DNA of 38,987 bases, taken from assembly GCA_027028725.1 (NCBI GenBank), contig JALVIB010000017.1:1-38987 (forward strand). Direction: 5' to 3'. The notes below the pieces were generated by a model. The model saw only the letters and a program-made list of their open reading frames with translations, searched no databases and had not been told where the DNA came from. Below, piece by piece: positions 1 to 38,987 of this stretch. The position numbers were made by a program, and so were the translations under genes. Source of the DNA: Candidatus Altimarinota bacterium (GTDB lineage: Bacteria; Patescibacteriota; Gracilibacteria; UBA4473). Within the stretch, counting starts at the first letter, position 1. The number at the start of each line of letters is the position of its first letter.

Positions 1-6
1 CTAAAC

Positions 7-1713
7 CTAGTCTTTATGGTCGCCATTAACATGACCAAAACCTATTCTTATCCCATCCCCAACTTTTCTAATGTTAAACATCTTATGAATTCCTTCCTCT
101 CCCAGACACAAAATTCTTGACAGTACCTTTTTAATAGCGGTGGAGACTTTTTTAATAATTTCCGGTTTTGGTTTGAATTTCTCTAAATCAAAATCAGGAA
201 ATTTTTCGCGGATTTTTGCCAAATGAGTGATGATAGTGGAGGTTTTTAATCCGCGTATTTCAGCGATTTCAGCTAAATCTTTTCCTTCAGCAATCAAGTT
301 TTTGGTTATTTCGGCAGTGGGGATTTTTTTCGCAGAAGAAATCTTAAGTCCGGACTTAAACATATTTTTATCTCGTAACAAGTCCGGACTTGATTTCTCT
401 TTTACAAAATCCCGCGAAATTTTTTCCAATTCTGCTTCGGGAATGTTTTCATAAACTTTTTCAATTTCCGCGGAAAGTTGCTGAAACCGCTTATCCGCTG
501 CCATCGCCAGCTCATCCATTTGTAAAACATTACCGTTCGCGCCCAGTAATTTCAATCCGCCCCAACTTTTGACCCGTGACAGGGCGACATAACCTTGCCC
601 GCACTCAAAAGTTTTCGACAAATCCATCTCCGCGCGCTCCAAAGTCATTCCTTGCGATTTATGCACTGTAATTGCCCACGCCAAGCGAAGCGGAATTTGC
701 GAAAAAGTCGCGAGATTTTGCCCGAACTCGTTCGTCACCGACCAATCTTCCGGTTTGGCGACAATTTCCCGTCCGTCCGCAATTTCTACGACTGGCCAGC
801 CGTCCGGCGTAATCCGCGAAATTTCGCCCAGAGTCCCGTTGAAATACCCTTTTTCGTAATTATTTTTCACAAAAATCACTTTCGCACCGACTTTTAATTC
901 CAAAACTTCTGGTGCCAGAACAGATTTCGCCAAAGTTTTGGCAAGTGTTTTATTTCCCGCGAATTTTCCAAAAAACATTTCAACCGGTCCGGGAAGTTTT
1001 TTCAATTCCTCGCGATTAATGCGGTCCACATCAGCATTGTGCGTATAAAGTTTTATCGCGAAATCTTCCGAATTTTCGCGGGATTCTTCCAACTTTTCCA
1101 GCAACAAATCCTGCGCCACATCAGAAATTTCGCCACTCCGCATTTCGTTCAAAATATCGGTTAGAGCGCAATCTGCTTGCCGATATTGTTCGGTGATATA
1201 ACAAACTTTCAAATCCGCTTTGACCCAAACCGGCGACATAAAAGCGAATTTTTCGCGGGAATTTAACCGCTCGCGACTGACAGGCGGAAGCTGAAAAAAG
1301 TCGCCTGAAAAAATCACTTGAATTCCGCCGAACGGCTCAAAACTGACTTTGAAAAACCGTAAAATCTGGTCGATACAGCCCAAAGTTTTTTTGGAAATCA
1401 TTGAGATTTCGTCGATTATCAAAACCTCAACTTGTTCCAAACGCTGGCGAACTTTCTTTTTTTTCGCGATTTTTTCCAAATCGCGTTCGGTGATTTCTTC
1501 CTTAATTCCCAAGCCTGACCACGAGTGAATTGTTTGTCCGCCCAAATGTGTCGCCGCAATTCCGGTGGACGCGGTAATCGCCACCGGCACTCCGTTTTTA
1601 CGGAGATAGTTGATGTATTGGTTCAGCACATAAGTTTTCCCCGCCCCTGCCGATCCTGTCAAAAAGACATTTTCGCCAGCTTTCATGATTTTGAGCGCGG
1701 TGGATTGTTTCAT
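7..1713 (-). CDS. Pif1/RecD-family ATP-dependent DNA helicase with C-terminal helix-turn-helix domain
   Basis: Long ORF with Walker A GSAGAGKTY, motif II LIIDEISM, FGG..GDFFQLPPV and C-terminal ITVHKSQGMT. I moved the start to MKQSTALK (ATG, rc of 1711-1713), because the ORF-track extension to 1827 runs through intergenic repeat elements. Confidence 0.85.
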   Translation of the reverse strand: MKQSTALKIMKAGENVFLTGSAGAGKTYVLNQYINYLRKNGVPVAITASTGIAATHLGGQTIHSWSGLGIKEEITERDLEKIAKKKKVRQRLEQVEVLIIDEISMISKKTLGCIDQILRFFKVSFEPFGGIQVIFSGDFFQLPPVSRERLNSREKFAFMSPVWVKADLKVCYITEQYRQADCALTDILNEMRSGEISDVAQDLLLEKLEESRENSEDFAIKLYTHNADVDRINREELKKLPGPVEMFFGKFAGNKTLAKTLAKSVLAPEVLELKVGAKVIFVKNNYEKGYFNGTLGEISRITPDGWPVVEIADGREIVAKPEDWSVTNEFGQNLATFSQIPLRLAWAITVHKSQGMTLERAEMDLSKTFECGQGYVALSRVKSWGGLKLLGANGNVLQMDELAMAADKRFQQLSAEIEKVYENIPEAELEKISRDFVKEKSSPDLLRDKNMFKSGLKISSAKKIPTAEITKNLIAEGKDLAEIAEIRGLKTSTIITHLAKIREKFPDFDLEKFKPKPEIIKKVSTAIKKVLSRILCLGEEGIHKMFNIRKVGDGIRIGFGHVNGDHKD

Positions 1714-1832
1714 CGTGTGAATTGTAGAGGTTTTTGGAAAATCCCGCGAATTTAACCCCCTCGCCCCCTTGTCAGGGGGGAAATATAATACGCAAAGCAG
1801 CTTTGTAGACGCAATGACGCGTCGCACTTTCT

Positions 1833-1850
1833 AAAATCCCGCGAAATTTT
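1833..1850 (+). repeat. Perfect 18-nt copy of the dispersed motif AAAATCCCGCGAAATTTT (exemplar, intergenic)
   Basis: Read directly at 1833-1850. It is one of about 110 copies of the core CCCGCGAA/TTCGCGGG in the window. Confidence 0.95.
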
Positions 1851-2126
1851 TTAATTTCACTTCCCGCCCAAGAGTTTCTCGCACGATGGCGGGATCTCTT
1901 CTTTTTTCAAAGTTTGTTTACATTCTCCCTCCTAGCAGGAGGGAGAGAGAGGGCGGTAGAAATATTTTGAAACAACCCTTCCCGAGTACTCGGGACTAGG
2001 AGAGGGAGTTCAAAGGAACAGGATTTGTTGTTTTTTCGCGGGATTTTTAATTATCTATGAAATTCTTTTGACAATATTGCAAATATTTGTTTTATTGTGT
2101 GCGATATATTTTTTAACAACTACAAA

Positions 2127-2792
2127 ATGAGAAAAAATGAAGAAAGATTTGAGCTTAATGAAAACATGGCTGTCAAAAATTTAAGAAATGTTTTAAAAGA
2201 AATTATCAAAAAAGAAGGATCAGGAGAAGAGGTAGCAGAATTGATAGATCGTGCTAAATCAATTATTGCAGAAAACATAAAAGTTGCAGATTTTGGACAT
2301 AAAAAAGCCCAAAAACGATTTGAGAAACAAGGAAATCCGCGAAAAGTTAAAAAATTAGGTAGATTAAATACTAAACTAAAACAACTTGAAGATAAAATCC
2401 CGCGCGATTATTGGAAAAATTTTGATGCAGAAGAAATACTAAATGCGGTTGAAGAGGTTTATTTTGAAAATAATAAAAAAGAAAAAGACGATATTGTTCC
2501 TGTTGGAGATGTTCAAAAAGTAGTTCATGGAAAAGTTTATAAACAAATATTGCCATCTGTAAATCCCGCGAAAAAATCTATTCAAGTTGATAAAGGTAGT
2601 ATGGCGGAAGTTCAAGCAAAATCAAAAATTGAAGAGGCGGCGCATCAAGAAAGAAAAATTACAAATCCTAAATGGATGGGGAATGAGAAAATAGGGGTTA
2701 GAAAAGGAAGAAGAAAGTTTTTAGAAGGAGTTGAAAATATAAAAAGAGATTTAAATCGAACTTATGGGATAAATAGTTTAACAGGTTTATAA
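2127..2792 (+). CDS. Hypothetical Lys/Glu-rich protein
   Basis: ORF 2097..2792, for which the ATG at 2127 (MRKNEE) is preferred over the GTG at 2097. No recognisable family. It contains motif copies at about 2397 and 2561. Confidence 0.5.
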   Translation: MRKNEERFELNENMAVKNLRNVLKEIIKKEGSGEEVAELIDRAKSIIAENIKVADFGHKKAQKRFEKQGNPRKVKKLGRLNTKLKQLEDKIPRDYWKNFDAEEILNAVEEVYFENNKKEKDDIVPVGDVQKVVHGKVYKQILPSVNPAKKSIQVDKGSMAEVQAKSKIEEAAHQERKITNPKWMGNEKIGVRKGRRKFLEGVENIKRDLNRTYGINSLTGL

Positions 2793-2808
2793 AATTTCGC
2801 GGGATTTT
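2791..2808 (+). repeat. Perfect 18-nt copy of the motif in reverse orientation (AAAATTTCGCGGGATTTT), overlapping a stop codon
   Basis: Read directly; it begins within the TAA stop of the 2127..2792 ORF. Confidence 0.95.
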
Positions 2809-2819
2809 TATATTAAATC

Positions 2820-3203
2820 ATGGAGTTAATAGAAAAAGAAATCAAAACGGATTTTGGATACGCTAAAATGTCTGTAGTAAAAGATGAAGGGGTGTTTCAA
2901 GGATATTTAGATAAAATTGTATCATACAAGAGGGGCTGTGGTCATGAGATTATGAAAATAGTTTTGGAATGGTTTTATCAACAAAAAGTCGATGAAATTT
3001 TATTACAGATTACGCCTTTAGGAGATGTTTCAGCGGATAAGTTAGTAAAATTTTATAAAAAAGAAGGATTTGAGGTAATTGCTCGTTCAGGGCGAATGAC
3101 CAAGGAATATTTAGAATTTATAGTTAAAGAAAACTTTAAAAATTTCGCGGGATTTTACCGCGGATACATTCCGATTCCCCCTGCTAGATTGACGATTTTG
3201 TAA
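2820..3203 (+). CDS. GNAT-family N-acetyltransferase-like protein
   Basis: 127-aa ORF with a KRGCGHEIM (R/Q-x-x-G-x-G/A-like) motif and FYKKEGFEVI, typical of the GNAT core. Its 3' end overlaps the convergent rhodanese gene by about 49 nt. Confidence 0.55.
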   Translation: MELIEKEIKTDFGYAKMSVVKDEGVFQGYLDKIVSYKRGCGHEIMKIVLEWFYQQKVDEILLQITPLGDVSADKLVKFYKKEGFEVIARSGRMTKEYLEFIVKENFKNFAGFYRGYIPIPPARLTIL

Positions 3204-4072: not shown

Positions 4073-5620
4073 ATGAAAAAAATTCTAATGTTATCGGCTC
4101 TCGTGCTACTCTTCGGATGTAGTCAAACAGAAAAACCGCAGGTGGAGCAACCAAAATCCCGCGAAATTTTTACACTCAAAGCAGAAACTGTTGCACCAGT
4201 TCTTAATCTAACTGGAAATGTGGAAGCGGAAAAGCAAATTCCAATTTCCGCGAAAATTATGGGGCGAATTGATTCGCTCAAAGTTGATGTCGGCGACAAA
4301 GTTTACAAAGGACAAATTCTCGCGAGATATTCCGCAGTGGATAATGATTCTTTGGCGCGGTATCAAAGCGCTTTAAGTCAATTCAAGTCAACCGAAGCGT
4401 CTGCCGAAAATGCCGTCAATACAGCGGAAGTTCAACTAGAATCGGCTGAGCGCGCTTTGGAACAAACCAAAAAAGAAGAAGAAGTTCAGCGCAAAAAACA
4501 ATACGACAATTTATACACCAATGCGAAGTTGTCCGAGATTACGATTTCTAATGTTTTAAATTTTTTAGACAAAAACTTGGAAGCTTCCAATAAATTTGAA
4601 GGAATGAGTCCGTACGAAAATGTTTTGGGGCGGAATAATTCTATTTTGAAAAATAATTTAAAAAACCGCGTTGAGGAACTAGTCCGAAATTTCGCGGGAT
4701 TTTCCAAGACCGAACCAAAATCAGAGCAAGCAATCCTAAGTTTCGCCAGTGAGCGACTGGATTTTTTACGCAAAGTGAAAAGTGCTTTACTAGATTTTGA
4801 TTCCTTAGTTCGGGGGACAGTCTCTTCGCGAACTTTTCCCGAAGCTGTGAAAAACGGGTTTGTTGCCGAAACCGCGAATTATTTACAAGCGATTTCGCAA
4901 GCGATTACTAATTTAGAAAACTTTATCACTGGAACGAAAGTGATGGACGAACAACTTGGCTTGAAAGTTTTAGCCATGGAAAATCAGCTAGAATCCGCGA
5001 AATCTGGGGTGGAACTCGCCAAAGCCAATGCCGAAAATCAAGTAGTAGCGGCGCGTTCGCAGGTTAATATCGCTTCCACTTATCAGCGAGAAATGGTGGT
5101 CAAAGCACCGTTTGCTGGAGTAATAATTTCGCGGGATATTGATATGGGGCAACTGGTTTCCCCTGGTCAGAAATTATTTGAGTTAGCGGATATGTCCGGT
5201 TTCAAAATCAAAACTGATGTTTCTGATGCTTACGCGGCGATGATTAAAATTGATATGCCGGTAGAAATTTCTGTCGATGGTTTGAAGGAAAATTTCGCGG
5301 GAATTGTGACCAAGGTAAATCCAGCGCTTGATCCGCGGACACGAAAATTGGGAATTGAAATTACTTTCCAAGAAGATGAGGAAGCCGAGGAAAACATTTT
5401 AGATAAACTCAAAATCGGGTTATTTGCACGGATTAAAATTCAGTTACCGGAACGAGAAACTTTCAAAATCCCGCGAAATTTTGTCCGTTTTGACTACGAC
5501 GGGGCAAAAATTGAATTAGAAAACGGGGAAGTGAAAAAAGTTGATATTTTGTCCGAAGAAAAAGGTAAAGTGGAGATTTATTTTGATGGGATTGAAGAAG
5601 GACTAAAAATTGTTAATTAA
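4073..5620 (+). CDS. Efflux RND periplasmic adaptor (HlyD/MFP family) lipoprotein
   Basis: Lipobox LLFGCSQ, a long coiled-coil middle region, barrel-sandwich motifs (GQILARY, VKAPFAGVI), and a position directly upstream of an RND pump. Confidence 0.85.
   Translation: MKKILMLSALVLLFGCSQTEKPQVEQPKSREIFTLKAETVAPVLNLTGNVEAEKQIPISAKIMGRIDSLKVDVGDKVYKGQILARYSAVDNDSLARYQSALSQFKSTEASAENAVNTAEVQLESAERALEQTKKEEEVQRKKQYDNLYTNAKLSEITISNVLNFLDKNLEASNKFEGMSPYENVLGRNNSILKNNLKNRVEELVRNFAGFSKTEPKSEQAILSFASERLDFLRKVKSALLDFDSLVRGTVSSRTFPEAVKNGFVAETANYLQAISQAITNLENFITGTKVMDEQLGLKVLAMENQLESAKSGVELAKANAENQVVAARSQVNIASTYQREMVVKAPFAGVIISRDIDMGQLVSPGQKLFELADMSGFKIKTDVSDAYAAMIKIDMPVEISVDGLKENFAGIVTKVNPALDPRTRKLGIEITFQEDEEAEENILDKLKIGLFARIKIQLPERETFKIPRNFVRFDYDGAKIELENGEVKKVDILSEEKGKVEIYFDGIEEGLKIVN
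4153..4170 (+). repeat. Perfect 18-nt motif copy inside a CDS (translated KSREI)
   Basis: AAAATCCCGCGAAATTTT was read at 4153-4170 within the adaptor gene. Confidence 0.95.
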
Positions 5621-5680: not shown

Positions 5681-8600
5681 ATGAACAAAATTAAAGAAAC
5701 AAATTCAAGTAATCTTTCTCCCGCCTTGCGGGAGGCGAGGGGGTTAAAACTAAACTTTGCCGGTAAAATCGCGAAATTTTTCCTAGAAAATCGTCCGTTG
5801 ACGATTCTGATTTTGGTCGGGCTAATTTTCGCGGGATTTTTGTCCTACAAAATGACTCCAAAGCAGTATAATCCGACAATTTCCATGCCGGCATTTACCG
5901 TTATTGTCGATTATCCCGGAGCTTCGGCGGAGGAAGTCGAAAGATTTGTCACCCGCGAACTTGAAGAAAAAATCGCGGATGTTCCCGGAGTTGATAAGAT
6001 TTTTTCTCAATCGATGGACGGCGGGCGTGCAGTTTCTTTTGTCCAATTTTTAGTTGGGGAAGATTTTGAAGATTCTCGCGTGAAATTGACCAACAAAGTT
6101 TTGGGAAATCTAGATTTGCGACAAGGAATGATTCAAACACCGCTAATTAAATCAGTTTCCGCGGACGATGTGCCAGTTTTAACGATTGGTTTTTCTGCGA
6201 AAAATTTATCGCAAAACCAAGTGCGGGTGCTGGCTTACGACATTATGAACCAGCTCAAAAAAGTGCCAAATGTCGCGAATTTAGATATTCACGGTGGAGA
6301 ACCGCGGGTCTTGAAAATTTCCCTAGATCTAGGGCGAATGAAAAATCGCGGGGTTTCCGTGCAGGATATAAAAAATGCGATTTTGGCGAATAATTTCCGT
6401 TTCCGAACCGGGAAAATCGAAAATCCCGCGAATTTTTTTGAAGTAGAGGTGAACGGAGAACTAACCGATCCCGAGTCCGCGAAAAAAATTACCGTTGTGC
6501 CGGGCGTGAAATTAGAAGATGTCGCCAAAGTTTCGGACGGATATCGAGAAAAAACTTCTTTTGTGCAGGTTTTCAAAAAAGATGGCGTGCAAGACACGGT
6601 TTTTGTTTCTCTCGCTAAACGAAAAGGATCAAATGCGCAAACCGTTGTCAAAGACGCGCGGGAAGCTTTGTCGCGAATTATGGCTAACGAAAAATTCGCG
6701 GGATTAGATTTTCACATTTATCGTGATGAAGGAGAAGTTTCGCGGAAAGCAATTGGTGGATTGATGCAAAATCTAATCTCCTCAATTCTGATTGTTTCCA
6801 TCGTTCTGTGGCTGTTTCTCGGACTTCGTTCAGCTTCAATTGTGGCGATTGCTATTCCGCTGACGATGGCGGGAGTTTTCATTATCGGGTATTCCGCGGG
6901 GAAAAATATCAACCGCGTGACTTTGTTTGCTTTGATTTTATCGCTGGGACTTTTGGTCGATTCGGCGACGGTCGTGGTAGAAAACATTTATCGGCATTTG
7001 CAGGAAAAAGCAAAATCCGCGAAAAAATCACTTCAAGTTCGGCGGGAAGCAATTGTCGAAGCGGTAAATGAAGTGGGAATCGGATTATTTTTATCAACTT
7101 TGACTTCGGTGATTGTCTTTTTGCCGACTTCCAACCTGTCAGGAATGATGGGAGATTACATGGGACCATTATCTTTCTTTTTGCCGATGGCGTTGATTGT
7201 TTCCATGTTGGTCGCCTATGTTTTGACGCCTTTTTTGGCTGATGTGATTTTGCCAAGAGACCTCACCCCAAACCCTCTCCTAGAAGGAGAGGGAGCTAAA
7301 AGGAATTTATCATTTTTTGACCGCGTAACAGAAAAATATTCTAAACTACTGACTAAAATTTTGGATAAAGATAAATTCCGCCGATTCTTTTTGATAACGA
7401 TTTTTGGGGCATTGTTTTTAGTTTTTACTTTTCCTGTTTTGAAATTAGTGCATTTCAAAATGCTCCCTTCGGCGAACAAAAACCAATTCTTTGTTTACAT
7501 CGACGCGCCACAAGATACAAATTTCCCGCAAACGCAAAAAATCGCGGGATTTATCAGCAAAGAACTTCTGAAAAATCCGGAAATTGTTTCGGTGCAAAGT
7601 TTTGTCGGCACGGCTTCCGTCGTGGACTTTAACGGACTTTTCAAAGGAGCGAATTACCGCATTGCACCGTATATGGCAACTTTGCGGGTGAATTTAACCG
7701 ACACAGATGATCGTTCGATTAAATCAACACCACTTCTGGACGCGGAACGAGATAAAATTCTCGCGAAAATTTCTAAACTTCAAAATAGTACCGTTTGTCA
7801 GGGGGAAGCTTGTGAAAATCCCGTGAAAAATAGCCCTCACCCCAACCCTCTCCCCGAGGGAGAGGGAGATATAAACTTTTACGAAACTTTGAAAAACACC
7901 ACTTTCAAATTCTTGGAAGATCCACCGGGTCCGCCGGTGCGGGCGACTTTGATGGCTAAAATTAAAGGTCCAAACCGCGAGCTTTTGAAAAAAGTCGCGC
8001 GTGATGTAGAGGAAATGTTCCGCAAAACTGATCGCGTGGTGGACATTGATACTTCTATCAGTGACAATGTGCGAAAAGTTTCGTTTCGCGTAGATCACGA
8101 AAAAGCTTTGGAAGCGGGGATTACGACCATGCAAATTTATGAAGCGTTGTCGGCAATTACTGCGGAAAAAAATATTTCCCAGTTCCACCAAAAAGATTCA
8201 CCGGAAATGATTGACATTACTTTGAGCGTGCCACCAGAAAAACGCGATAAATTGGAAGATTTGACCGAAGTTTACATCAAAAATTTCGCGGGAAATATGG
8301 TGCCGCTTTCCGCTGTCGTTCGTAAAGTGGAAACTCGTCCGGAGGAAGTTCTTTATCTCGACACACGCGATGAAACAATTTATGTGACGGGGGAATTGAA
8401 AAATCGGAGTGTGATTTACGCGACAATTGATTTGATGTTTGATATTTTTGATTACGATTTTCCGGAAGGTGGAAAAATCGTGGATTGGAGTTTGTACGGA
8501 TTTGATTTTGAGACAAAATCCCGCGAAATTTACCATATCGAATGGGGTGGAGAACGCGAGCTGACTTTGGATAATTTTCGCGACTTGGGATTGGCGATGT

Positions 8601-9136
8601 TGATTGCGTTTATCGCGATTTATGGTGTGCTAGTGGCGCAGTTTGAGTCTTTCAAAGTTCCGCTTCTAATCATGAGTACGGTTTTCCTCGGATTTTTGGG
8701 AATTATGCCGGGATTTGCAATTTTAGACAAAACCCTCGGAACTTTCCTAACCGCCACCAGTTTGATTGGATTTATTGCCTTGATGGGGATTGTGGTGAAT
8801 AACGCCATTATTTACTTGGAATATTTTGATATTCTACGCGACCGCGGAGTAAATTTTCGCGATGCTTTATTTCAAGCCGGAAAAACTCGTTTGCGACCGA
8901 TTGTTTTGACTTCCATGACAACGGTTTTGGGAAGTCTGACCATTATTAACGATCCGGTTTGGTCGGGATTGGCGTGGACAATTATTTTTGGATTATCAAT
9001 TTCCGCAGCTTTCACACTAGTGGTTTTCCCAGCGTTAATGGCAAGTTTTCCGCCAAAAGTTCGTGACGAAGACCATTTACTCAAACCGAATCCGAAAGCA
9101 AATTGTGCTTGTGAAATTAAAAATCCCGCGAAATAA
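5681..9136 (+). CDS. RND efflux transporter permease (AcrB/CzcA/CusA superfamily)
   Basis: 1151-aa ORF with a 12-TM RND layout and conserved segments (ALILSLGLLVDSATVVVENI, LIGFIALMGIVVNNAIIYLE). It carries in-frame hairpin-repeat insertions at 5718-5734, 7261-7295 and 7834-7868. Confidence 0.9.
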   Translation: MNKIKETNSSNLSPALREARGLKLNFAGKIAKFFLENRPLTILILVGLIFAGFLSYKMTPKQYNPTISMPAFTVIVDYPGASAEEVERFVTRELEEKIADVPGVDKIFSQSMDGGRAVSFVQFLVGEDFEDSRVKLTNKVLGNLDLRQGMIQTPLIKSVSADDVPVLTIGFSAKNLSQNQVRVLAYDIMNQLKKVPNVANLDIHGGEPRVLKISLDLGRMKNRGVSVQDIKNAILANNFRFRTGKIENPANFFEVEVNGELTDPESAKKITVVPGVKLEDVAKVSDGYREKTSFVQVFKKDGVQDTVFVSLAKRKGSNAQTVVKDAREALSRIMANEKFAGLDFHIYRDEGEVSRKAIGGLMQNLISSILIVSIVLWLFLGLRSASIVAIAIPLTMAGVFIIGYSAGKNINRVTLFALILSLGLLVDSATVVVENIYRHLQEKAKSAKKSLQVRREAIVEAVNEVGIGLFLSTLTSVIVFLPTSNLSGMMGDYMGPLSFFLPMALIVSMLVAYVLTPFLADVILPRDLTPNPLLEGEGAKRNLSFFDRVTEKYSKLLTKILDKDKFRRFFLITIFGALFLVFTFPVLKLVHFKMLPSANKNQFFVYIDAPQDTNFPQTQKIAGFISKELLKNPEIVSVQSFVGTASVVDFNGLFKGANYRIAPYMATLRVNLTDTDDRSIKSTPLLDAERDKILAKISKLQNSTVCQGEACENPVKNSPHPNPLPEGEGDINFYETLKNTTFKFLEDPPGPPVRATLMAKIKGPNRELLKKVARDVEEMFRKTDRVVDIDTSISDNVRKVSFRVDHEKALEAGITTMQIYEALSAITAEKNISQFHQKDSPEMIDITLSVPPEKRDKLEDLTEVYIKNFAGNMVPLSAVVRKVETRPEEVLYLDTRDETIYVTGELKNRSVIYATIDLMFDIFDYDFPEGGKIVDWSLYGFDFETKSREIYHIEWGGERELTLDNFRDLGLAMLIAFIAIYGVLVAQFESFKVPLLIMSTVFLGFLGIMPGFAILDKTLGTFLTATSLIGFIALMGIVVNNAIIYLEYFDILRDRGVNFRDALFQAGKTRLRPIVLTSMTTVLGSLTIINDPVWSGLAWTIIFGLSISAAFTLVVFPALMASFPPKVRDEDHLLKPNPKANCACEIKNPAK

Positions 9137-9983: not shown

Positions 9984-10177
9984 TTTCGCGGGATTTTAGA
10001 AAAAAATGCGTTAATGTAGGGAACGAATATTTTCGTTCCTCGTTAAATTATCTTTATTTGAATTAATTTTTTGGAGCGAAGATATTCGCTCCCTACGAAC
10101 AAGAATAAAATCCCGCGAGATTTTTCTCGTAACCCCGCCGCCTTGTAAACTCCCCCAAAACTTTTAGAATACTCCTG

Positions 10178-11689: not shown

Positions 11690-11690
11690 A

Positions 11691-11719
11691 TTGACCATTT
11701 TGGGCAAAATTCATACAAT
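11691..11719 (+). promoter_or_regulatory. Candidate sigma70 promoter (TTGACC, 17-nt spacer, TACAAT) upstream of tRNA-Ser
   Basis: TTGACC lies at 11691-11696 and TACAAT at 11714-11719, about 55 nt upstream of the tRNA. Confidence 0.45.
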
Positions 11720-11776
11720 TCACGCGGTTTGACCACGAAATCCCCAACCACAGGTTGGCAGGCGCGAAATTTTTAC

Positions 11777-11866
11777 GGAGAGTTGCCGGAGCGGTCGAAC
11801 GGGGCACCCTGCTAAGGTGTTGTACCCGCAAGGGTACCGAGGGTTCGAATCCCTCACTCTCCGCCA
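11777..11866 (+). tRNA. tRNA-Ser (anticodon GCU), CCA encoded
   Basis: Hand-folded cloverleaf: acceptor GGAGAGT/ACTCTCC, anticodon loop CTGCTAA, long variable arm (TGTACCCGCAAGGGTACC), T arm GAGGG-TTCGAAT-CCCTC, discriminator G plus CCA. Confidence 0.9.
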
Positions 11867-12038: not shown

Positions 12039-12092
12039 TTCGCGGGATTTTGTGTTTGCATTTTTTCAAAATTTGTTGTAAATCTTAACTGA

Positions 12093-22385: not shown

Positions 22386-22391
22386 TGCCAA

Positions 22392-27572: not shown

Positions 27573-27633
27573 TGGTTGGATTTTAGTAGTTTGTAAATAA
27601 AAATGCGAAAATTTCGCGGGATTTTCAAAAATC

Positions 27634-27747
27634 GTTGTCATCTCGACCGATGAATTTAAGCTTAAAAACAGAGTAGTGGAGAGATCTCAACAAAAGATTT
27701 CTCCATTCTGTCCTAACACAAGTTTTAACTTCCAGTCGAAATGACAA
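27634..27747. repeat. Second, more degenerate copy of the TTGTCATCTCGACCGA-TIR MITE-like element
   Basis: The 5' end reads GTTGTCATCTCGACCGA and the 3' end reads CCAGTCGAAATGACAAA. Confidence 0.4.
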
Positions 27748-29011: not shown

Positions 29012-31393
29012 ATGAATTTTCGTAAATGGTCGCTTTCAGTTCTAATATTCTTTTGTGGAGCTACTTTTTTTAATCTAGCCAATGCTTTGACCTTGAAAAG
29101 TTATTCGGTCTCTCGGGCGAATATTGCTGTTATGAAAAATGATGATCCGAATGTTTTTCAAGTGAGAGTTTGGGCGGACAATATGGCTCAAGCGCAAAAA
29201 GTTTTGCTCCAAATAATTGATAAAAATGGAGCGGCAGTTTTTGAGCAAGAAAATCCCGCGAAATTTTCTGAGCGCAAACCAACACAGCTTGATGTTGATT
29301 TTGCAGTAGATTTAACCAAAAACAAATTAGCGGGTGATTATAAATTGAAAGCAGGCATTTTTAACGAAGACGGACAAAAGATTGCTTGGGCAGAGCTTCC
29401 GCGAAATTTCGCGGGGAATTCGGTTAGTTCGGAGATTTCTGATTTAAAAATTAAAGCTGATAAAGATTTAGTGAAAGGGAGTGTGCAATTTAAAAATAAC
29501 GGGGAAGCGGGCGATTTTGTCGCGAAAATTGATGTTTATAAAGACAACAATCAAAAAGAGTATGTCGGGACATATTCATCAGAAATCATTTCTGTCGGAG
29601 CGGGCGAAGAGTTGGGAATTCCTTTTACTTTTGCGAAACCAGCAGCCCCGCAACTTTATAATGTAAAAGTGGGGATAGTTCAAAATAATCAAGCGGTTAC
29701 AGGAAAATTGGCGGGAAGTTTTTTGGTAGAAGGAGATTTTGGAGAATTTTATTCACTAGCAATTTCTCCACAAAAGTATTTCAAAAAAGGAGACACGGCG
29801 ACAATTGAGTTTACCGGATCAACGACCACAGATAAAGAAACTCCACTTAGCGTGGAAATTAATGTTAAAAATGAGGCGGGAATGGCTTTGCAAAAAATAA
29901 TTAATGTTATGCCAGAGGATGCTTTGGGAAATTTCGCGGGAAAAGAGATGTTTTTAGTTACCGAAGGATCAAAAAAATTGTTTGTAGAAGCAATTTTGTG
30001 GCAAGGAAATAATGAGTTAGGGAGAATTTCTAAGGCTACCAAAGAATTTGCGAAACCAAAAGAAATTGGATTTATCAATAAAATCAAAGAACTAAAATCC
30101 CGCGAAAATTTATCAACAGCGGATAAATACAAAATTATTGCCGTTTTGATTGTAATTGTTTTGGCAATCATCATCTTTATTCGCGGGCTAGTGCGCGCTA
30201 ATAAAGGGAAAAACTTCTTTATTTTCTTCTGTTTGATTTTGGCTAGTGGGACAGCTTTTGCTAATGTTAAAATATATTATCCTCAGCCTGATGAAATTTA
30301 TAGCAATCATTCAAATTCTGATCCAAAATTGCAATTCAATGAAATTGGATTCATGGGAAGAATTACATCGAATCAAGGAGGATTATTGCCTAATGACGGA
30401 AAAGTCGTCAATTACGAGGTTACAATTGGTGGAGATGAAAATGGGGTAGGTGGTGATACTGCCGGGACTGGTAGCTTTACCATGACAGATGGTGGGAATG
30501 AAATCTATAAATTTTCGTTTAAAATTCCTGATGGGTTTACACAAGGGAAGTGGAATGTTCATGTTAGATTTTATGGGACAGATGTTAATGCTCGTCTAGA
30601 TGATTTAGGAATAGGAACTTCTGGAGTAGATGATGATATTGAGTTTAACGGAGTTGGTAGTGGTAATAAGATTATTATTGATGGGGCTGCTCCGAATGTA
30701 GATTTTGGGTTTTCTGGAGATAATTATAATAGTTTAACAAAATTTGCTAATAATACATTTAGAATGAAGCCGAAATGTGATGATAATCTTGCAAAGTGTT
30801 ATAGAAATTTCGCGAGCTTTCCGGTAACAGGAAATTTCTGTGATCCTGCTGAAAATTCTGATCATAAGGCTATCTGTAAGGATTCTAGTGGTACTGCTGT
30901 CCGCGTTCATAAGTTTAAAATCTGTGACAGAGCGGGAAATTGCAATACGAGATCCGCGGGAATTAATTTTTTTGATCCAGTGAAGCCGACAATGGGGAAT
31001 TTAGTTTTTAAACTACCTGATGGAAGAAAAATAGTTTTAGGAAACAACAATGTGTCAGCTGAATATACCAATAATCTTATTCTAAAAAATGTAGAAGATC
31101 CCGCGACCGGGACTTTGTCTGATCCAAACATTGTCCTTGATGACTATGTTTGTAATAATAGTAATGAATTCTCACTAGATGATTCCAATAAAGTTTGTGT
31201 TGAAAATTTTATAAATTGTGCAACAGGGCCATGGAGTCATGGATATTGTACTTGGGATGACATAAATAATGTTTATGTTGGGCCAGTTGTTAATTGTCCA
31301 AATGGAACAACTTATAACAGTACAACTAATGAGTGTGATCCAAGTTGTTATCACGATAGGTTCCCATATTGTTTTGCAGTAGAACCTGAATAA
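29012..31393 (+). CDS. Large surface protein. The N-terminal half has a signal peptide, Ig/CARDB-like region and TM anchor; the C-terminal half starts with a second signal-peptide-like segment and is Cys-rich.
   Basis: Signal peptide MNFRKWSLSVLIFFCGATFFNLANA, TM helix IIAVLIVIVLAIIIFI (about 30130-30190), then RANKGKNFFIFFCLILASGTAFA-NVK. No family recognised. Confidence 0.55.
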   Translation: MNFRKWSLSVLIFFCGATFFNLANALTLKSYSVSRANIAVMKNDDPNVFQVRVWADNMAQAQKVLLQIIDKNGAAVFEQENPAKFSERKPTQLDVDFAVDLTKNKLAGDYKLKAGIFNEDGQKIAWAELPRNFAGNSVSSEISDLKIKADKDLVKGSVQFKNNGEAGDFVAKIDVYKDNNQKEYVGTYSSEIISVGAGEELGIPFTFAKPAAPQLYNVKVGIVQNNQAVTGKLAGSFLVEGDFGEFYSLAISPQKYFKKGDTATIEFTGSTTTDKETPLSVEINVKNEAGMALQKIINVMPEDALGNFAGKEMFLVTEGSKKLFVEAILWQGNNELGRISKATKEFAKPKEIGFINKIKELKSRENLSTADKYKIIAVLIVIVLAIIIFIRGLVRANKGKNFFIFFCLILASGTAFANVKIYYPQPDEIYSNHSNSDPKLQFNEIGFMGRITSNQGGLLPNDGKVVNYEVTIGGDENGVGGDTAGTGSFTMTDGGNEIYKFSFKIPDGFTQGKWNVHVRFYGTDVNARLDDLGIGTSGVDDDIEFNGVGSGNKIIIDGAAPNVDFGFSGDNYNSLTKFANNTFRMKPKCDDNLAKCYRNFASFPVTGNFCDPAENSDHKAICKDSSGTAVRVHKFKICDRAGNCNTRSAGINFFDPVKPTMGNLVFKLPDGRKIVLGNNNVSAEYTNNLILKNVEDPATGTLSDPNIVLDDYVCNNSNEFSLDDSNKVCVENFINCATGPWSHGYCTWDDINNVYVGPVVNCPNGTTYNSTTNECDPSCYHDRFPYCFAVEPE

Positions 31394-31430
31394 GATAAAA
31401 ATCCCGCGAAATTTTTACCTCAGACAATAA

Positions 31431-31529: not shown

Positions 31530-33464
<1,935 letters not shown>

Positions 33465-33692: not shown

Positions 33693-33719
33693 TTAGCAGA
33701 CTTTTTGGTGGAGTGCTAA
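33693..33719. promoter_or_regulatory. CIRCE-like HrcA operator 2 (TTAGCAGAC-N9-GAGTGCTAA), just upstream of the -35 element
   Basis: Read directly; the half-sites match the consensus in 7/9 and 9/9 positions. Confidence 0.65.
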
Positions 33720-33769
33720 AATCCCGCGAAATTTTTCTTATCCCGCCAAAATCCCTAAACTAAACCTGA

Positions 33770-35337: not shown

Positions 35338-36015
35338 ATGGGCGAAAAAAAAACTCTGGCACTTCTGTTGAAAAAAACTTTACTACCAAATGATGATGCG
35401 GTTTTGGAGTTTTTGACAATGGAAATGGGGAAAATCACGGTCTTTGCCAAAAAATTCGCGAAATCTAAAAAACGCAACGAAATCGATTTTTTCCGAGTAA
35501 TTGAGCTGGGAATTTTTCAGGGACGAAACTCAAAATCCCTGAAACAAGCGCAAACTTTTTCCCTATTCCATAATTTTTCGCGGGATTTTTGGTCAACGCA
35601 AATTGGTTTTGAGTGGCTGGAATTTATTCGGCAAATCGTCCCCGAAGAAGAAATTGACCATAAGCTATTTAAGAAAATTATTGACCTGTTTACACATTAT
35701 TCCGCGGATTATAAAGACCAGTGGAACGCTTATTTTCAGGTGCAGTTGCTAGATTTCGCGGGATTTTGGCCGAAGTTTGACCGTGTCCGAAGTGATATTT
35801 ATTTTGATCCATTGACCAAGAAAATTTCGCCACCGCCTTGCGGGGCACAGCGAGATTTTGTTTCTGAAGCTATCGCCATTACTAATTTAGAAAGACAAAC
35901 TTTGGAATTTTTGCGGCGAGCTGATTTAGCTGAATTTTCCGTAAAAATAGAGAAAATCCCGCGAAATTTTGCGAAAATTTTTGAAGTCCTCTCTGCAGTG
36001 CAAAGTTTTAAATAA
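35338..36015 (+). CDS. recO: DNA repair protein RecO
   Basis: N-terminal OB-fold pattern (LLLKKTLLPNDDAVLEFLTMEMGKITVFAKKFAKSKKR) and a RecO-like length. A hairpin element at 35827-35853 is translated as SPPPCGAQRD. Confidence 0.65.
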   Translation: MGEKKTLALLLKKTLLPNDDAVLEFLTMEMGKITVFAKKFAKSKKRNEIDFFRVIELGIFQGRNSKSLKQAQTFSLFHNFSRDFWSTQIGFEWLEFIRQIVPEEEIDHKLFKKIIDLFTHYSADYKDQWNAYFQVQLLDFAGFWPKFDRVRSDIYFDPLTKKISPPPCGAQRDFVSEAIAITNLERQTLEFLRRADLAEFSVKIEKIPRNFAKIFEVLSAVQSFK

Positions 36016-36700: not shown

Positions 36701-36851
36701 GGCTCCCTCTTTTTTCAAAGAGGGCGGGGGGTGATTTTCTTTTAAAAAAATCCTCCTAAATCCTCCTTTCAAAAAAAGGAGGACTTATTTGAAAAATCCC
36801 GCGAAATTTTCTCGTAAACTTGTAAACTCGTTAACTCGCGAACTATTCGCA

Positions 36852-36925: not shown

Positions 36926-37140
36926 TTTGGAACCCCTTTATCCCCTTATCAGGGGAAAATTTTAGATCCTCGCCTACGTGGGGATAAATTCCACTAACAG
37001 CTCGTTCCTCGCTGGGTGTCATTTAATTTCGCGGGATTTTGATTTCCCGCCGACAAGAAGGGATTAGTTTTTTGAGATTTGTAAAAAATCGCTAGAATTT
37101 TACACGATAAATCGTCAAAGGCGAGTAATTTTTCAGCAAA

Positions 37141-37947
37141 ATGTTAGCGAAACCACTTGAAGTTAGTGCCAAAAACTTACATTCACCAGCCGAAATGCTG
37201 GAAAAAACCCGCGAATTTTTGCAAAAAAATCCGCAGGGGATTATTGAAATTCTGGGCCCAACCGCTTCCGGAAAAACCGGCTATTCCATTTATTTAGCCA
37301 AATGGATTGAGGAAAATTTCGCGGAAAAATGCGAAATAATCTCTGTCGATTCGCGACAAGTTTTTCGCGAGATGGATATTTCGTCTGCCAAGATTACAGA
37401 GGAAGAAATGCAGGGAATTCCGCACCATGGACTTGATTTAATCAATCCGGATGAAGATTTCAGTGTGGCGGATTTTCAGAAATACGCTTTTGAAAAAATC
37501 GCGGAAATTCAAGCTCGCGGAAATCGCGTGATTTTATGCGGGGGAACGATGTTGTGGCTGGATGCGATTAGTGAGAATTATATTTTTACCGATAAAAAAG
37601 GAGTGAAATCGAATAAAAAAGGAAAACCGAAGTGGCCGGTTTTCAAAATCGGGATGTATTGGAAGCGTTCAAAGTTATACAAACGGACAGATTTGCGATC
37701 GGAATTGCTTTTTGAGCAGGGATTGATTGCAGAAACCCGCGAAATTTTACAAAAATATCCCAAGATTACCAAAAGTGCGCTAACGAGTTTCGGATATTTA
37801 GAAATTAAACAATATTTAGACGGAGAAATAACTTTAGAGCGGGCGCTAGAGCTAAACAAGCAAAAAAATCGCAAATATGCCAAACGCCAGCTGACTTGGT
37901 GGCGTGGGCGAGATGATGTGCATTGGTTAAGGGCGAAGGATTTATAA
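37141..37947 (+). CDS. miaA: tRNA dimethylallyltransferase
   Basis: ILGPTASGKTG P-loop, ISVDSRQVFREMDISSAK, GIPHHGLD and KRQLTWWR. Confidence 0.92.
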   Translation: MLAKPLEVSAKNLHSPAEMLEKTREFLQKNPQGIIEILGPTASGKTGYSIYLAKWIEENFAEKCEIISVDSRQVFREMDISSAKITEEEMQGIPHHGLDLINPDEDFSVADFQKYAFEKIAEIQARGNRVILCGGTMLWLDAISENYIFTDKKGVKSNKKGKPKWPVFKIGMYWKRSKLYKRTDLRSELLFEQGLIAETREILQKYPKITKSALTSFGYLEIKQYLDGEITLERALELNKQKNRKYAKRQLTWWRGRDDVHWLRAKDL

Positions 37948-37962
37948 AATTTCGCGGGATTT

Positions 37963-38586
37963 TTAATTAAAATTAGGGTCAAGCGGTAGAGTTCTAAATC
38001 TTATATAATGTCCAGCTTCTGGGTATCCTGTTTCGTCTAAATCTAGAGCTAATCCATTCCAAGTAGAATTAACTCTTTGGCAATTATTGTTTTTATATAA
38101 CCGTACATAATTATGCAGTCTTCCAAAGTTTTCATATTTATAATCCCCCGGAATATTAGAAATATGATTTTTTATGGAACTGTTCCCATAAAAAACAAGA
38201 ACCTCATCTAAATATTGTTCAGCAGAGACAAGTAAAAATTTACTATTGTCATAGGCTTCACGGATAAACACATAACAATCTTTTTCGGCAGGCGGAAGAG
38301 TGATGCCTTTTTCTTTTAATTTATCTACGATGCATTTTGTAGTATTGTTTATTTCATCAGTGGTGCCAGTACAACCTTCCTGAAATTTAATATTTCCAGT
38401 TTCGAGTGATTCTAGAAGAATTATTTTTTCAACCTGTTTTAATTCGGATATTCTTTTAGTGTCGCGAGATTTCTTCTGATAACCACTAAAAGTAGTTACG
38501 GAAACCGTCGCAAGAATACCAATGATTACAATCACCACCAAGAGTTCAATTAGAGTAAATCCCGCGAAATTTCGTTTGTTTGGCAT
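37963..38586 (-). CDS. Type IV pilin / pseudopilin with a prepilin N-terminal cleavage-methylation domain
   Basis: The leader MPNKRNFAG is followed by FTLIELLVVIVIIGILA. The globular part contains 4 Cys. Confidence 0.85.
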   Translation of the reverse strand: MPNKRNFAGFTLIELLVVIVIIGILATVSVTTFSGYQKKSRDTKRISELKQVEKIILLESLETGNIKFQEGCTGTTDEINNTTKCIVDKLKEKGITLPPAEKDCYVFIREAYDNSKFLLVSAEQYLDEVLVFYGNSSIKNHISNIPGDYKYENFGRLHNYVRLYKNNNCQRVNSTWNGLALDLDETGYPEAGHYIRFRTLPLDPNFN

Positions 38587-38830
38587 TTTGAAAGAGTTTT
38601 TTCCAGGGAAAGTATATCAGAACTAAAATCAAGACCAAAACCAAAATTATTTTTTCGCCTTTCGATAAAAACTCAAGATAAACGGGAATTTCCCTGTTCT
38701 GTTATTGCAAGCGATATTAAAAGTTGAATTTTAAAATAAAGCGCGGCAATCTTTTTCTAAAATAGGAAGTAGATTGCTTCGTCATTCTTCCTCGCAATGA
38801 CGATGCTATTTTTTCGCGGGATTTTGAATA

Positions 38831-38862
38831 AAAAAAAGAGCGACGATGTCGCTCTTTTTTCT
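38831..38862. terminator. Bidirectional rho-independent terminator
   Basis: The hairpin AGAGCGAC-GAT-GTCGCTCT is flanked by an A-run and a T-run. Confidence 0.6.
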
Positions 38863-38878
38863 TATTTTTTATAAAAAT

Positions 38879-38986
38879 CTAATCGTTAAGCCATTTCAAG
38901 CTAGTGAAAGGTGAAAGCATGTTTTGTAGGAAATCACCAGTTCGGTAATTAGCTACTCTTTTTTTTGTTCCTTCGTATTTAGGAGC
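38879..38986 (-). CDS. 3' end of an unidentified gene (partial, continues beyond the window)
   Basis: An open frame runs to the window edge (..APKYEGTKKRVANYRTGDFLQNMLSPFTSLKWLND*) and is followed by the terminator. Confidence 0.3.
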   Translation of the reverse strand, partial: APKYEGTKKRVANYRTGDFLQNMLSPFTSLKWLND

Positions 38987-38987
38987 A

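Follow-up and report, generated by a model that had tools for sequence, protein, structure and literature searches.

What process could make a single short word recur throughout a housekeeping stretch of chromosome from an uncultured member of Candidatus Peribacteria (Patescibacteria/CPR)? The window, by which we mean the whole 38,987-nt stretch of DNA analysed (39.5% G+C), had been described in a sequence-only reading as holding about 110 copies of an 8-mer in near-equal orientations. Counting gave 111 copies of this core, CCCGCGAA (reverse orientation TTCGCGGG), with 55 on the plus and 56 on the minus strand and hence no polarity, at a density of 2.85 per kb. Markov models of order 0, 2 and 3 predict 0.42, 4.6 and 11.8 copies, respectively (higher orders are contaminated by the word itself), so that the reported enrichment holds against each null. 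The 10-mer TCCCGCGAAA occurs 88 times (2.3 per kb), the 12-mer ATCCCGCGAAAT 37 times and the exact 18-mer AAAATCCCGCGAAATTTT 20 times, ten per strand, where 3e-6 to 0.003 copies are expected. The field of the word extends over positions 1-38987, comprising the cores, 132 sites within four mismatches of the AAAATCCCGCGAAATTTT consensus (6% of the window) and about 170 of 359 CGCG sites that score above 0 against the motif matrix, compared with about 4% by chance. The abundance of the 18-bp word is far above chance, and the observation is real.

A logo built from 147 CCGCGAA sites confined the information to 18 positions, with background level on either side, and a matrix from the 62 best sites holds about 26.6 bits. 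The word is thus sharply bounded, and it is asymmetric. Although palindromy extends to 14 of 18 positions, with A/T tracts that begin 11 bp apart, the palindromic variant TTCGCGAA is rare (7 copies in the window) and CCCGCGGG is missing from the 25 commonest NNCGCGNN words, each with at least three occurrences. None of the six frames contains a stop codon, and the predicted folding energy is 0.0 kcal/mol. The earlier rejection of a CRISPR array is supported, and a literature search found no mention of the word.

Copies lie both within and between genes. At least one core is present in 25 of 31 ORFs, and 69% of cores fall inside ORFs, dnaK, uvrB and recO included; the initial description of copies in "nearly every gene" and in "all frames" was therefore mildly overstated, since the remaining ORFs have no core and four frames are common (NFAGF, KISRDF, NPAKF, KSREI) while two are rare. 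Relative to gene direction, 38 copies run with the gene and 39 against it. The perfect copies within ORFs are found at 406-423 (+) in a PIF1-like helicase ORF, with the coding-strand reading KISRDF; at 3139-3156 (-) in ORF 2820-3203 (KNFAGFY); at 4153-4170 (+, PKSREIF) and 5465-5482 (+, KIPRNF) in the HlyD-family gene; at 22051-22068 (-) in the SpoU methylase gene (PKSREIF); at 27608-27625 (-) in the prepilin peptidase gene (ENPAKFS); at 29250-29267 (+) in a 793-aa secreted-protein ORF (ENPAKFS); at 31732-31749 (-) in dnaK (EKSREIL); and at 35953-35970 (+) in recO (KIPRNF).

Intergenic sequence, 17% of the window, holds 34 of the 111 cores, about twice the density in genes. In twelve ORFs the stop codon touches a copy, in either orientation, or lies no more than 7 nt from one, and a thirteenth (5681-9136) terminates within a copy. 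Perfect examples overlap the TAA stop of ORF 2097-2792, filling most of a 27-bp spacer (2791-2808, -), and that of the TPP-enzyme gene (15064-15081, -), or follow the stops of ORF 13408-13863 by 7 nt (13870-13887, -) and of ORF 29012-31393 by 5 nt (31398-31415, +). All that separates miaA from the convergent pilin gene is the copy at 37946-37963 (-), which overlaps the miaA stop and ends with the first base of the pilin gene's stop codon. The other intergenic perfect copies are at 1833-1850 (+); at 12034-12051 (-), overlapping the final five bases of a duplicated tRNA-Ser 3' end (12009-12038); at 23373-23390 (-), adjoining a GC-rich hairpin; at 26563-26580 (+), with an inverted partner at 26462; at 33718-33735 (+), upstream of ORF 33770; and at 36793-36810 (+), which brackets tRNA-Arg together with an inverted copy at 37023. 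The 18-mers at 1833, 2791 and 4153 had been reported before, with exactly these sequences.

Neighbouring copies strongly prefer opposite orientations, which is a new feature. Adjacent pairs switch orientation in 77 of 110 cases in the window (z = 4.1), 279 of 430 in CAZMOH (z = 5.3) and 48 of 68 in CAZYIR (z = 3.0), and the alternation is also seen inside ORFs in pooled data (z = 2.9). Gaps below 60 bp are depleted (5 observed, 17 expected), CAZMOH pairs 100-300 bp apart are 72-84% inverted, and same-orientation pairs are depleted within 300 bp and peak at 400-500 bp. Close inverted pairs able to form terminator hairpins are absent, and no co-variation was found between neighbouring inverted copies. 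To our knowledge, uptake sequences of the DUS/USS type offer no precedent for such a preference. Alternation would be expected of a strand-specific signal for a DNA-tracking enzyme, such as a Chi-like recombination or self-DNA marker or a control site for a helicase or translocase, if the word were required both ways so that the orientations stay interleaved; the depletion of same-orientation neighbours fits this, and RecO, UvrB and a PIF1-like helicase are encoded in the window. However, the word shows no strand skew despite a GC skew of one sign across most of the 39-kb window, known Chi sites are replichore-skewed and, at 5-8 nt, all much shorter than an 18-mer, and an intracellular repair signal would need selection site by site. 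We consider this explanation improbable.

Alignments of orthologs indicate how copies originate. In the UvrB codon alignment, the word coincides with in-place substitutions (GDVEDY to GSREDY, KFDEFE to KFAEFE, SPEKV to SPAKV and NTRLEE to KSREKQ), and neither this alignment nor a three-species HlyD alignment contains 18-bp indels at copies. Alignment gap columns number 4 within copies and 404 outside. Within the clade, third-codon-position identity is 83.5% in copies versus 56.3% outside, and of 22 aligned copies 12 persist with no more than three mismatches. The copy at 5465-5482 is perfectly conserved in three species with divergent flanks, and the site orthologous to 4153-4170 also bears the word, perfect in L027 and with one mismatch in L004. 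These alignments show copies arising in place through point substitution, at times altering conserved amino acids.

Spread by insertion, in which a miniature mobile element of MITE, REP or REPIN type left the copies behind or had them as its ends, could account for several spacers bracketed by inverted pairs; GC-rich hairpin elements distinct from the word have indeed inserted into ORFs, with 8 of 14 abutting a copy, and a 26-aa insertion in an RND transporter has a degenerate copy. For the bulk of the copies, however, this is already contradicted by the lack of indels, by similarity among copies that falls to background directly beyond the 18-mer, by the share of cores within ORFs and by the folding energy of the word, leaving a mobile origin highly improbable. 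The view of the sequence-only reading that the copies are not transposed units is upheld.

The word is confined to a shallow lineage. A genome scan across 185,579 species gave at least 63 matching stretches, and among those listed multi-copy matches came only from Candidatus Peribacteria MAGs and two "Saprospiraceae"-MAG contigs, both 95% identical to the window. Core densities are 2.1 per kb in CAZMOH, 1.8 in CAZYIR, 2.5 in both L071 and L193, and 2.66 across 62 motif-rich metagenome contigs. At least three related species thus carry the word at comparable density, and shifted variants, or dialects, occur: TCCGCGAA is as frequent as or more frequent than CCCGCGAA in CAZYIR and L070. Five sister genomes (UvrB 78, 77, 77, 72 and 63% identical) have 0-1 cores per 16-22 kb, and no other word of comparable abundance occurs in these 16-22 kb each. 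The word is also scarce in accessory-like genes. In L193, a single core lies in the 2.6 kb of an 870-aa hypothetical ORF and none in the HicAB and YafQ genes, whereas aaRS, SufBD and FtsK genes are rich in cores. The exact 18-mer has one match in the whole of IMG/VR; the 14-mer occurs at most once per viral contig among the matches listed, in a database that may hold no phages of this clade, and none of the viral stretches fetched has a window-like core density.

CGCG as such reaches 9.2 per kb, versus 1.0-1.5 per kb in sisters of similar G+C (6.5 per kb in L068, at 51% G+C), and partial forms such as CGCGAAA and TCCGCGAA make a continuum. Both observations suit a HIP1-type word, whose CGCG core would be tied to methylation or biased repair: through an orphan methyltransferase acting with a sequence-specific mismatch or nicking enzyme, repair or gene conversion would come to favour the word, which may in addition stimulate the recombination of homologous DNA when this is methylated. 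The density, the presence in and between ORFs and the interspecies conservation match HIP1 (PMC5861425, PMC4390886), and a preprint describes a homology- and methylation-dependent increase in transformation efficiency by HIP1 (10.1101/2024.09.10.611283). However, the ORFs of the window include neither a DNA methyltransferase gene nor one of Vsr type, and it is not obvious how biased repair would make orientations alternate. Moreover, the information spans 18 asymmetric positions, A/T flanks included, whereas very-short-patch repair and typical methyltransferases read 4-8 bp. We therefore regard a HIP1-type origin as unlikely, if less so than a tracking signal.

The near-palindromic, A-tract-flanked design would also suit a binding-site array for an abundant, clade-specific nucleoid-associated protein, in which antiparallel neighbours 100-300 bp apart would be bridged or looped to organise the chromosome or mark gene boundaries, the sites being maintained by selection. 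The 11-bp spacing of the A/T tracts, the exclusion of close neighbours, the inverted CAZMOH pairs and the excess of copies between genes, at stop codons and next to GC-rich hairpins are consistent with this, and a role in nucleoid structure has been proposed for HIP1 (PMC5861425). Yet by extrapolation there would be thousands of sites, each needing selection strong enough to change conserved UvrB residues, and individual selection of this kind is implausible where the benefit per site is weak. We are aware of no nucleoid protein that recognises its sites with 26-bit specificity and has one every 200-350 bp. The absence of any trace of the word in close sister lineages, the rarity of palindromic half-site combinations, which argues against a simple homodimer, and the lack of co-variation between inverted neighbours also speak against it. 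A nucleoid protein is unlikely too, but the most credible of these alternatives.

The best available hypothesis, to which we assign a probability of about 0.4, is that the word marks DNA for uptake or self-recognition within this lineage, functionally analogous to DUS/USS but evolved independently in one shallow Peribacteria clade; its evolutionary signature is that of DUS/USS. The receptor would sit at the cell surface, most likely as a minor pilin in the type IV or competence pilus, and would prefer dsDNA with AAAATCCCGCGAAATTTT over other DNA. The biased step would be DNA uptake, with word-bearing fragments imported and recombined more often, so that point mutations creating or improving a copy would be over-transmitted (molecular drive) while selection would purge only protein-damaging copies. 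All computationally testable predictions of this idea were borne out: no polarity, one lineage with dialects, point-substitution origin, synonymous-site conservation, intergenic enrichment, frame bias, accessory-gene scarcity, at most one copy per viral contig among the matches listed, and pilus genes.

Pilus genes in the genome include one for a prepilin peptidase and those for three or more paralogous pilins. The type IV pilin at 37963-38586 (-), which has an N_methyl motif, is by inference a candidate component of the DNA-uptake pilus, and the prepilin peptidase at 26736-27641 (-; Peptidase_A24) would provide the pilus-biogenesis context. A copy of the word (38556-38573) supplies the codons of the pilin's G|F cleavage site. 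In published work, com genes and type IV pili are shared as conserved features by CPR phyla, and natural transformation through ComEC is known from Saccharibacteria (PMC10633639).

Support for the uptake idea as first put forward is nevertheless partial. A screen of fragmentary clade DNA, about 390 kb, yielded no ComEC, DprA or ComFC, and the pilin model (pLDDT 76) had no significant PDB match and resembled no solved DNA-receptor pilin, providing no ComP-like lead. The density is two- to threefold that of DUS/USS at comparable word length, whereas a drive for which one copy per fragment suffices should saturate near 1 per kb. HIP1 bears the same signature, and its function is still debated (PMC5861425). 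Strong alternation is not what orientation-independent uptake, as measured in Haemophilus, would predict (PMC1939737). It suggests that recognition or a later step might be strand-specific here, unlike in Haemophilus, in which case a fragment with one copy per strand would do best. If the uptake reading is right, the word would be the first candidate self-recognition DNA signal in this group of the candidate phyla radiation.

Among known systems, REP/BIME and REPIN elements are likewise short repeats, often inverted between neighbours and frequent at gene ends, but REPs lie outside genes, are palindromic, form hairpins and are moved by RAYT transposases, unlike this largely intra-ORF word free of indels, hairpin and extended similarity. 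Chi and KOPS are also over-represented oriented words, and an orientation-dependent reader could explain the alternation, but both are 5-8 nt and replichore-skewed. HIP1 (GCGATCGC, cyanobacterial) resembles the word in occurring about once per gene or more, in and between ORFs, and in being substitution-produced and conserved between genomes at otherwise free sites (PMC5861425, PMC4390886); it is, however, a perfect 8-bp palindrome, phylum-wide and with cognate orphan methyltransferases, whereas the present word is an asymmetric 18-mer that avoids palindromic variants and is confined to a shallow clade.

The closest counterparts are USS of Pasteurellaceae (AAGTGCGGT core with phased AT-rich flanks) and DUS of Neisseriaceae (GCCGTCTGAA and dialects), a comparison of sequence signatures in which uptake bias and receptor are proposed. 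The present word is unrelated in sequence, belongs to another host phylum, has a longer, contiguous conserved block (18 bp, about 26 bits), is denser, and alternates at 100-300 bp, with close inverted terminator-hairpin pairs absent. Reading-frame bias, absence from genes without homologs, non-coding excess and lack of orientation bias are documented for DUS/USS (PMC2817400, PMC1939737). Like them, it is a hyper-abundant, non-palindromic word equal on both strands, frame-biased within genes with enriched encoded peptides, over-represented near gene ends and in non-coding DNA, scarce in accessory-like genes as DUS/USS are absent from recently acquired ones, and lineage-specific with dialects, accumulating by point mutation; with USS it also shares a GC core between A/T-tract flanks.

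The 8-mer core CCCGCGAA occurs 111 times in the window (38,987 bp, GC 39.5%), 55 times on the forward strand and 56 times on the reverse, bearing out the sequence-only reading, which had estimated about 110 copies in roughly equal orientations. The 10-mer TCCCGCGAAA was counted 88 times and ATCCCGCGAAAT 37 times, the 12-mer AAATCCCGCGAA reaches 1.6/kb, and the full 18-mer AAAATCCCGCGAAATTTT, hereafter the word, is present in 20 perfect copies (10 in each orientation, 0.5/kb); the three 18-mers quoted in the earlier reading were all recovered exactly. Expected counts were calculated from analytic Markov models, the higher orders of which are contaminated by the word itself, giving 0.42 (order 0), 4.6 (order 2) and 11.8 (order 3) for the 8-mer against 111 observed, and 3e-6 to 0.003 for the 18-mer against 20 observed. 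In the window, the word combines the over-representation (about 100-fold or more) and the density of about one per kb expected of the DUS/USS class, the uptake sequences of Neisseriaceae and Pasteurellaceae. A logo built from 147 CCGCGAA sites confined the information to 18 positions, with background level on either side, so that the A/T flanks are indeed conserved beside the core, as had been proposed. The matrix from the best 62 sites carries about 26.6 bits. Sites with at most four mismatches to the consensus number 132 and make up 6% of the window, and about 170 of its 359 CGCG sites score above zero, where chance would give about 4%. The copies grade into one another as a continuum.

The word is quasi-palindromic, matching at 14 of 18 positions, and its asymmetry is specific: the palindromic alternative TTCGCGAA has 7 copies in the window against 111 of the asymmetric form, and CCCGCGGG falls outside the 25 most frequent NNCGCGNN words. 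HIP1, the iterated palindrome of cyanobacteria, shows the same signature without a settled function (PMC5861425), and a comparable methylation or repair word could be considered here. We regard this as unlikely. Words of the HIP1 type are perfect short palindromes with a cognate orphan methyltransferase acting on their core, and a search of the window ORFs gave no DNA methyltransferase. That the word serves an architectural DNA-binding protein is rather unlikely, and a model with a homodimer reading two half-sites was rejected because palindromic combinations are rare. The word by itself remains unfolded (0.0 kcal/mol), which excluded an RNA or single-strand hairpin. Terminator and promoter elements were rejected as well, as consensus scans did not exceed the number of sites obtained from shuffled sequence; the convincing terminator hairpins of the window are sequences other than the word. 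A search of the window against Rfam returned only two tRNAs, the word matching no family.

The window is ordinary chromosome, encoding a PIF1-like helicase, a CsoR-type repressor, an RND efflux pair, a flippase, an SNase-type nuclease, a TPP enzyme, an aminotransferase, adenylosuccinate lyase, a SpoU methylase, L28, UvrB, a prepilin peptidase, HolA, DnaK, FtsX, RecO, MiaA, a type IV pilin and two tRNAs. At least one core lies in 25 of the 31 ORFs, and 69% of cores are ORF-internal; the sequence outside ORFs (17% of the total) holds 34 of the 111, a twofold excess. Relative to the genes of the window, 38 copies are co-oriented and 39 opposed, a balance shared with the DUS/USS class. The word contains no stop codon in any of its six reading frames, of which four are used frequently (encoding NFAGF, KISRDF, NPAKF and KSREI) and two infrequently (KIPRNF and KFRGI). 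In 12 ORFs a copy, in either orientation, lies against the stop codon or within 7 nt of it, the word typically opening with the AA of a TAA stop; a 13th ORF, at 5681-9136, terminates within a copy, and three spacers consist of little else than the word. The ~520 bp at 22851-23372, separating the L28 gene from the one that follows, are AT-rich and contain neither a copy of the word nor a long ORF; they may represent a degraded or recently acquired segment.

Accessory-like genes are poor in the word, although this scarcity rests on a small sample, namely L193, a contig from the same metagenome sample as the window (ERZ23491094) with matching core density and GC. On this contig, the HicAB and YafQ toxin-antitoxin genes (883-1256 and 13100-13977) contain no core and an 870-aa hypothetical ORF (10070-12682) has a single core in its 2.6 kb, while the neighbouring aaRS, SufBD, AlaRS and FtsK genes are word-rich. 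The word-poor genes may have been recently acquired.

The origin of the copies was followed in alignments of an HlyD-family gene from three species and of UvrB codons from seven genomes. In both, the number of bases at every copy is unchanged in the other genomes and the differences are substitutions; in UvrB, 4 gap columns fall inside copies and 404 outside. Motif-clade UvrB genes, those of the word-bearing genomes, have shifted synonymous codons at copies, and at several of them residues conserved in every outgroup are altered as well (GDVEDY to GSREDY, KFDEFE to KFAEFE, SPEKV to SPAKV, NTRLEE to KSREKQ, and DFNRGS to DFSRGT). Between clade species of ~75-82% DNA identity, identity at third codon positions is 83.5% within copies and 56.3% elsewhere. 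Of 22 aligned copies, 12 are kept with at most three mismatches and about 5 are lacking at the orthologous site. Because synonymous-site identity is higher inside copies, it is the DNA word itself that is maintained, with some turnover. A point-mutation origin, tolerated reading frames, an excess in non-coding sequence and scarcity in accessory-like genes, as in the DUS/USS class, were thus all found. A mobile element of the REP, REPIN or MITE kind would have spread by insertion, as hairpin-forming copies outside genes, and we consider it extremely improbable: most cores (69%) lie inside ORFs, the copies show no indels, the folding energy is 0.0 kcal/mol and no similarity flanks the word. The alignments in this way support the earlier view that the copies are not transposed units.

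A second repeat family in the window consists of GC-rich palindromic hairpin elements, located at 1759, 3695, 4015, 7261, 7835, 9140, 10423, 12897, 13071, 13986, 20230, 22361 (minus strand), 31481 and 34187. One type reads CCTCACCCCAACCCTCTCC-TAGAA-GGAGAGGGAG and another CCCCCTCGCCCCCTTGTCAGGGGGG, and several are ORF-internal, translated as PHPNPLLEGEG-like peptides. The RND transporter encoded at 5681-9136 has a 26-aa insertion (~7800-7880) that is missing in its ortholog on L027, a stretch from another genome, indicating that the hairpin elements spread by insertion; in this they resemble the Rickettsia palindromic elements. In the window, 8 of the 14 elements adjoin the word within ~10 nt, and a strict hairpin finder applied to the window and the Candidatus Peribacteria genomes CAZMOH and CAZYIR likewise placed 8 of 14 within 15 nt, where a fraction of ~0.16 was expected. 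The elements either target the edge of the word or bring a copy along. Separately, a perfect 30-nt direct repeat (11848-11877 and 12009-12038, 161 bp apart) comprises the 3' end of tRNA-Ser(GCT) plus 11 nt, and looks like the attL/attR scar of an integrated and later lost element.

A scan for the exact 18-mer in one genome per species (185,579 species) matched at least 63 stretches. Among the matches listed, multiple copies were confined to the Candidatus Peribacteria MAGs CAZMOH01 and CAZYIR01 and to two contigs of a 'Saprospiraceae' MAG, and the other genomes had single, chance-level occurrences. Those two contigs (JALVEG01) are word-filled; one is 95% identical to window positions 37083-37964 (L064), and the other has a 66-nt match to the window at 86% (L016). 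They are very probably Peribacteria contigs mis-binned into a Bacteroidota MAG. Core density is 2.1/kb in CAZMOH and 1.8/kb in CAZYIR; it reaches 2.5/kb in L071 and L193, two more contigs from the organism of the window, and 2.66/kb over 62 motif-rich metagenome contigs, values somewhat inflated on short contigs because the loci were selected for carrying the word. Hits were most numerous in the sample ERZ23491094 and in the metagenomes Ga0256832, Ga0256833 and Ga0256841. The variant TCCGCGAA equals CCCGCGAA in number in CAZYIR and exceeds it in L070, a stretch whose UvrB is 91% identical to that of the window, and the palindromic TTCGCGAA is more frequent there as well. Five sister genomes with UvrB 78, 77, 77, 72 and 63% identical have 0-1 cores per 16-22 kb, and no other word of comparable abundance was found in these stretches, two of which are located on contigs of 0.96 and 1.33 Mb. 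CGCG itself occurs at about 1.0-1.7/kb in four of the sisters and at 6.5/kb in the fifth, which is G+C-rich (L068, 51% GC). The word therefore shows lineage specificity with dialects, as does the DUS/USS class. In IMG/VR, the exact 18-mer was found once, and carriage by phages was rejected, as the 14-mer is single-copy in every contig among the matches listed.

Neighbouring copies tend to alternate in orientation, a property absent from the sequence-only reading. Adjacent pairs switch orientation in 77 of 110 cases in the window (permutation mean 55.4, z = 4.1), in 279 of 430 in CAZMOH (L003-L063; z = 5.3) and in 48 of 68 at the CAZYIR loci (z = 3.0). Within single ORFs, 185 of 275 pairs switch in the pooled data (z = 2.9 by a conservative permutation), and pairs inside ORFs of the window by themselves do not reach significance (z = 1.0). 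When all CAZMOH pairs were sorted into 100-bp bins, the four bins up to 400 bp contained 23, 78, 79 and 55 pairs of opposite orientation, over a baseline of ~40, and 11, 15, 31 and 40 of the same orientation, the latter with a maximum of 57 at 400-500 bp. Inverted pairs are thus about twofold enriched at 100-300 bp, the +- and -+ arrangements each contributing, and pairs of like orientation are under-represented at distances of less than 300 bp. Gaps shorter than 60 bp are rare in the window (5 observed, 17 expected); even spacing was rejected, as the coefficient of variation of 0.93 does not differ significantly from the 0.99 of random placement, and the shortage of very short gaps is the one clear departure. 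Complementarity between inverted neighbours is no better than between random pairs and ends at the word, and no co-variation was detected, so that long-range or hairpin pairing and template-switch copying were discarded as causes.

A Chi-like signal for a tracking enzyme is distinctly unlikely, because such polar words, like KOPS, show a strong skew co-oriented with replication; here the strands are balanced at 55 and 56 while the GC skew of the window is largely one-signed. The earlier dismissal of a CRISPR array also stands, given the irregular spacing, the mixed and mostly alternating orientation, the copies within housekeeping genes and, as had been stated, the absence of cas domains among the window ORFs.

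The window and clade DNA encode pilus components, namely three or more pilins and a prepilin peptidase. A Pfam search of 18 membrane-rich ORFs, taken from ~390 kb of fragmentary clade DNA, gave PAP2, Wzy_C, DUF389, V-ATPase I subunit, FtsW, ArsP, EamA and others, but neither ComEC nor any Competence domain. The AlphaFold model of the window pilin is of moderate confidence (pLDDT 76.3) and has no significant Foldseek match in the PDB (none better than E = 0.48), giving no lead towards a sequence-specific receptor like ComP, the minor pilin of Neisseria. Full-length homologs of the window pilin are scarce, and some of them are paralogs from the same organism. The pilin gene occupies 37963-38586 on the minus strand; its prepilin leader ends in ...RNFAG|FTLIELL, and the codons for NFAGF, spanning the G|F cleavage site, coincide with a copy of the word (38556-38573); the same NFAGF leader is found in a close homolog (P0121, 96% identical) and a paralog (P0125). 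Past the right end of the window, the contig L071 carries TraC-like and PrgI-like genes and a second pilin paralog (6377-7561), less than 4 kb from the window pilin gene and with normal word density. TraC-like and PrgI-like proteins belong to the type IV secretion system of Patescibacteria. The com genes are reported as conserved throughout the CPR, and Saccharibacteria have been shown to undergo natural transformation (PMC10633639).

The spread in place by point mutation, affecting resident DNA of every kind, the restriction to one young clade, the harm to conserved proteins and the scarcity in accessory-like genes together point to transmission bias (molecular drive), not to thousands of individually selected sites. 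To our knowledge, biased DNA uptake followed by recombination is the sole demonstrated process of such drive. The published traits of DUS and USS include reading-frame bias, peptide enrichment, an excess in non-coding sequence, unbiased orientation, absence from genes that lack homologs, and dialects (PMC2817400, PMC1939737), and all of these are reproduced by the word. Given these shared traits, the pilus components and the CPR com genes, we rank first the reading that the word may be a DNA uptake or self-recognition signal, at a probability of roughly 0.4. This figure is held down because ComEC was not found in the screened fragments and the pilin model gave no structural lead, because the signature shared with HIP1 has no settled function there, and because alternation is not expected under orientation-independent uptake. 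A strand-specific step would reconcile alternation with transformation-linked drive: if the single entering strand must bear the word in one polarity, a fragment with one copy per strand would fare best. As a more tentative reading, the word may form, in place of a simple uptake tag, an oriented genome-wide code of a hitherto undescribed kind that evolved in one genus-level clade of an ultra-small CPR bacterium, alternating every 200-250 bp (a correctly oriented copy per strand about every 450 bp) and read strand-specifically. The machine reading it could act as a self-DNA licence on incoming or broken single strands in transformation or recombination, or could be a nucleoid-bridging protein that would pair antiparallel sites.

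In the literature, the word itself was encountered only within a pET/T7-promoter primer region and never in a genomic sense, and no paper tying uptake sequences to CPR was found; one review names DUS and CPR, unconnected, and the Peribacteria genome paper describes genomes of 58.5% GC and no such repeat. As the clade is young and its sisters are motif-free, comparative study can address how such a word is born, what it costs the proteins and what drives it. The word would also make a near-perfect, sensitive marker for binning and for mis-binned contigs, and its alternation is a new constraint for models of hyper-abundant words, HIP1 included. If the uptake reading is true, adding the 18-mer to donor DNA could render these uncultured organisms transformable.

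We know of genome-saturating uptake sequences in two bacterial families only, Neisseriaceae and Pasteurellaceae. A third independent case, in the CPR, would imply that exchange of DNA biased towards self arises repeatedly, also among ultra-small bacteria that probably depend on a host and are thought to scavenge DNA. The GC core of the word and its A/T tracts starting 11 bp apart recall the architecture of the USS. In contrast to the Neisseria DUS (GCCGTCTGAA-like) and the Pasteurellaceae USS (AAGTGCGGT-like), the word lies outside both by sequence and by host taxon, is longer and contiguous, alternates in orientation and is 2-3 times denser, the higher density having been anticipated from the sequence. 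By its behaviour, the word is a new instance of the DUS/USS kind.
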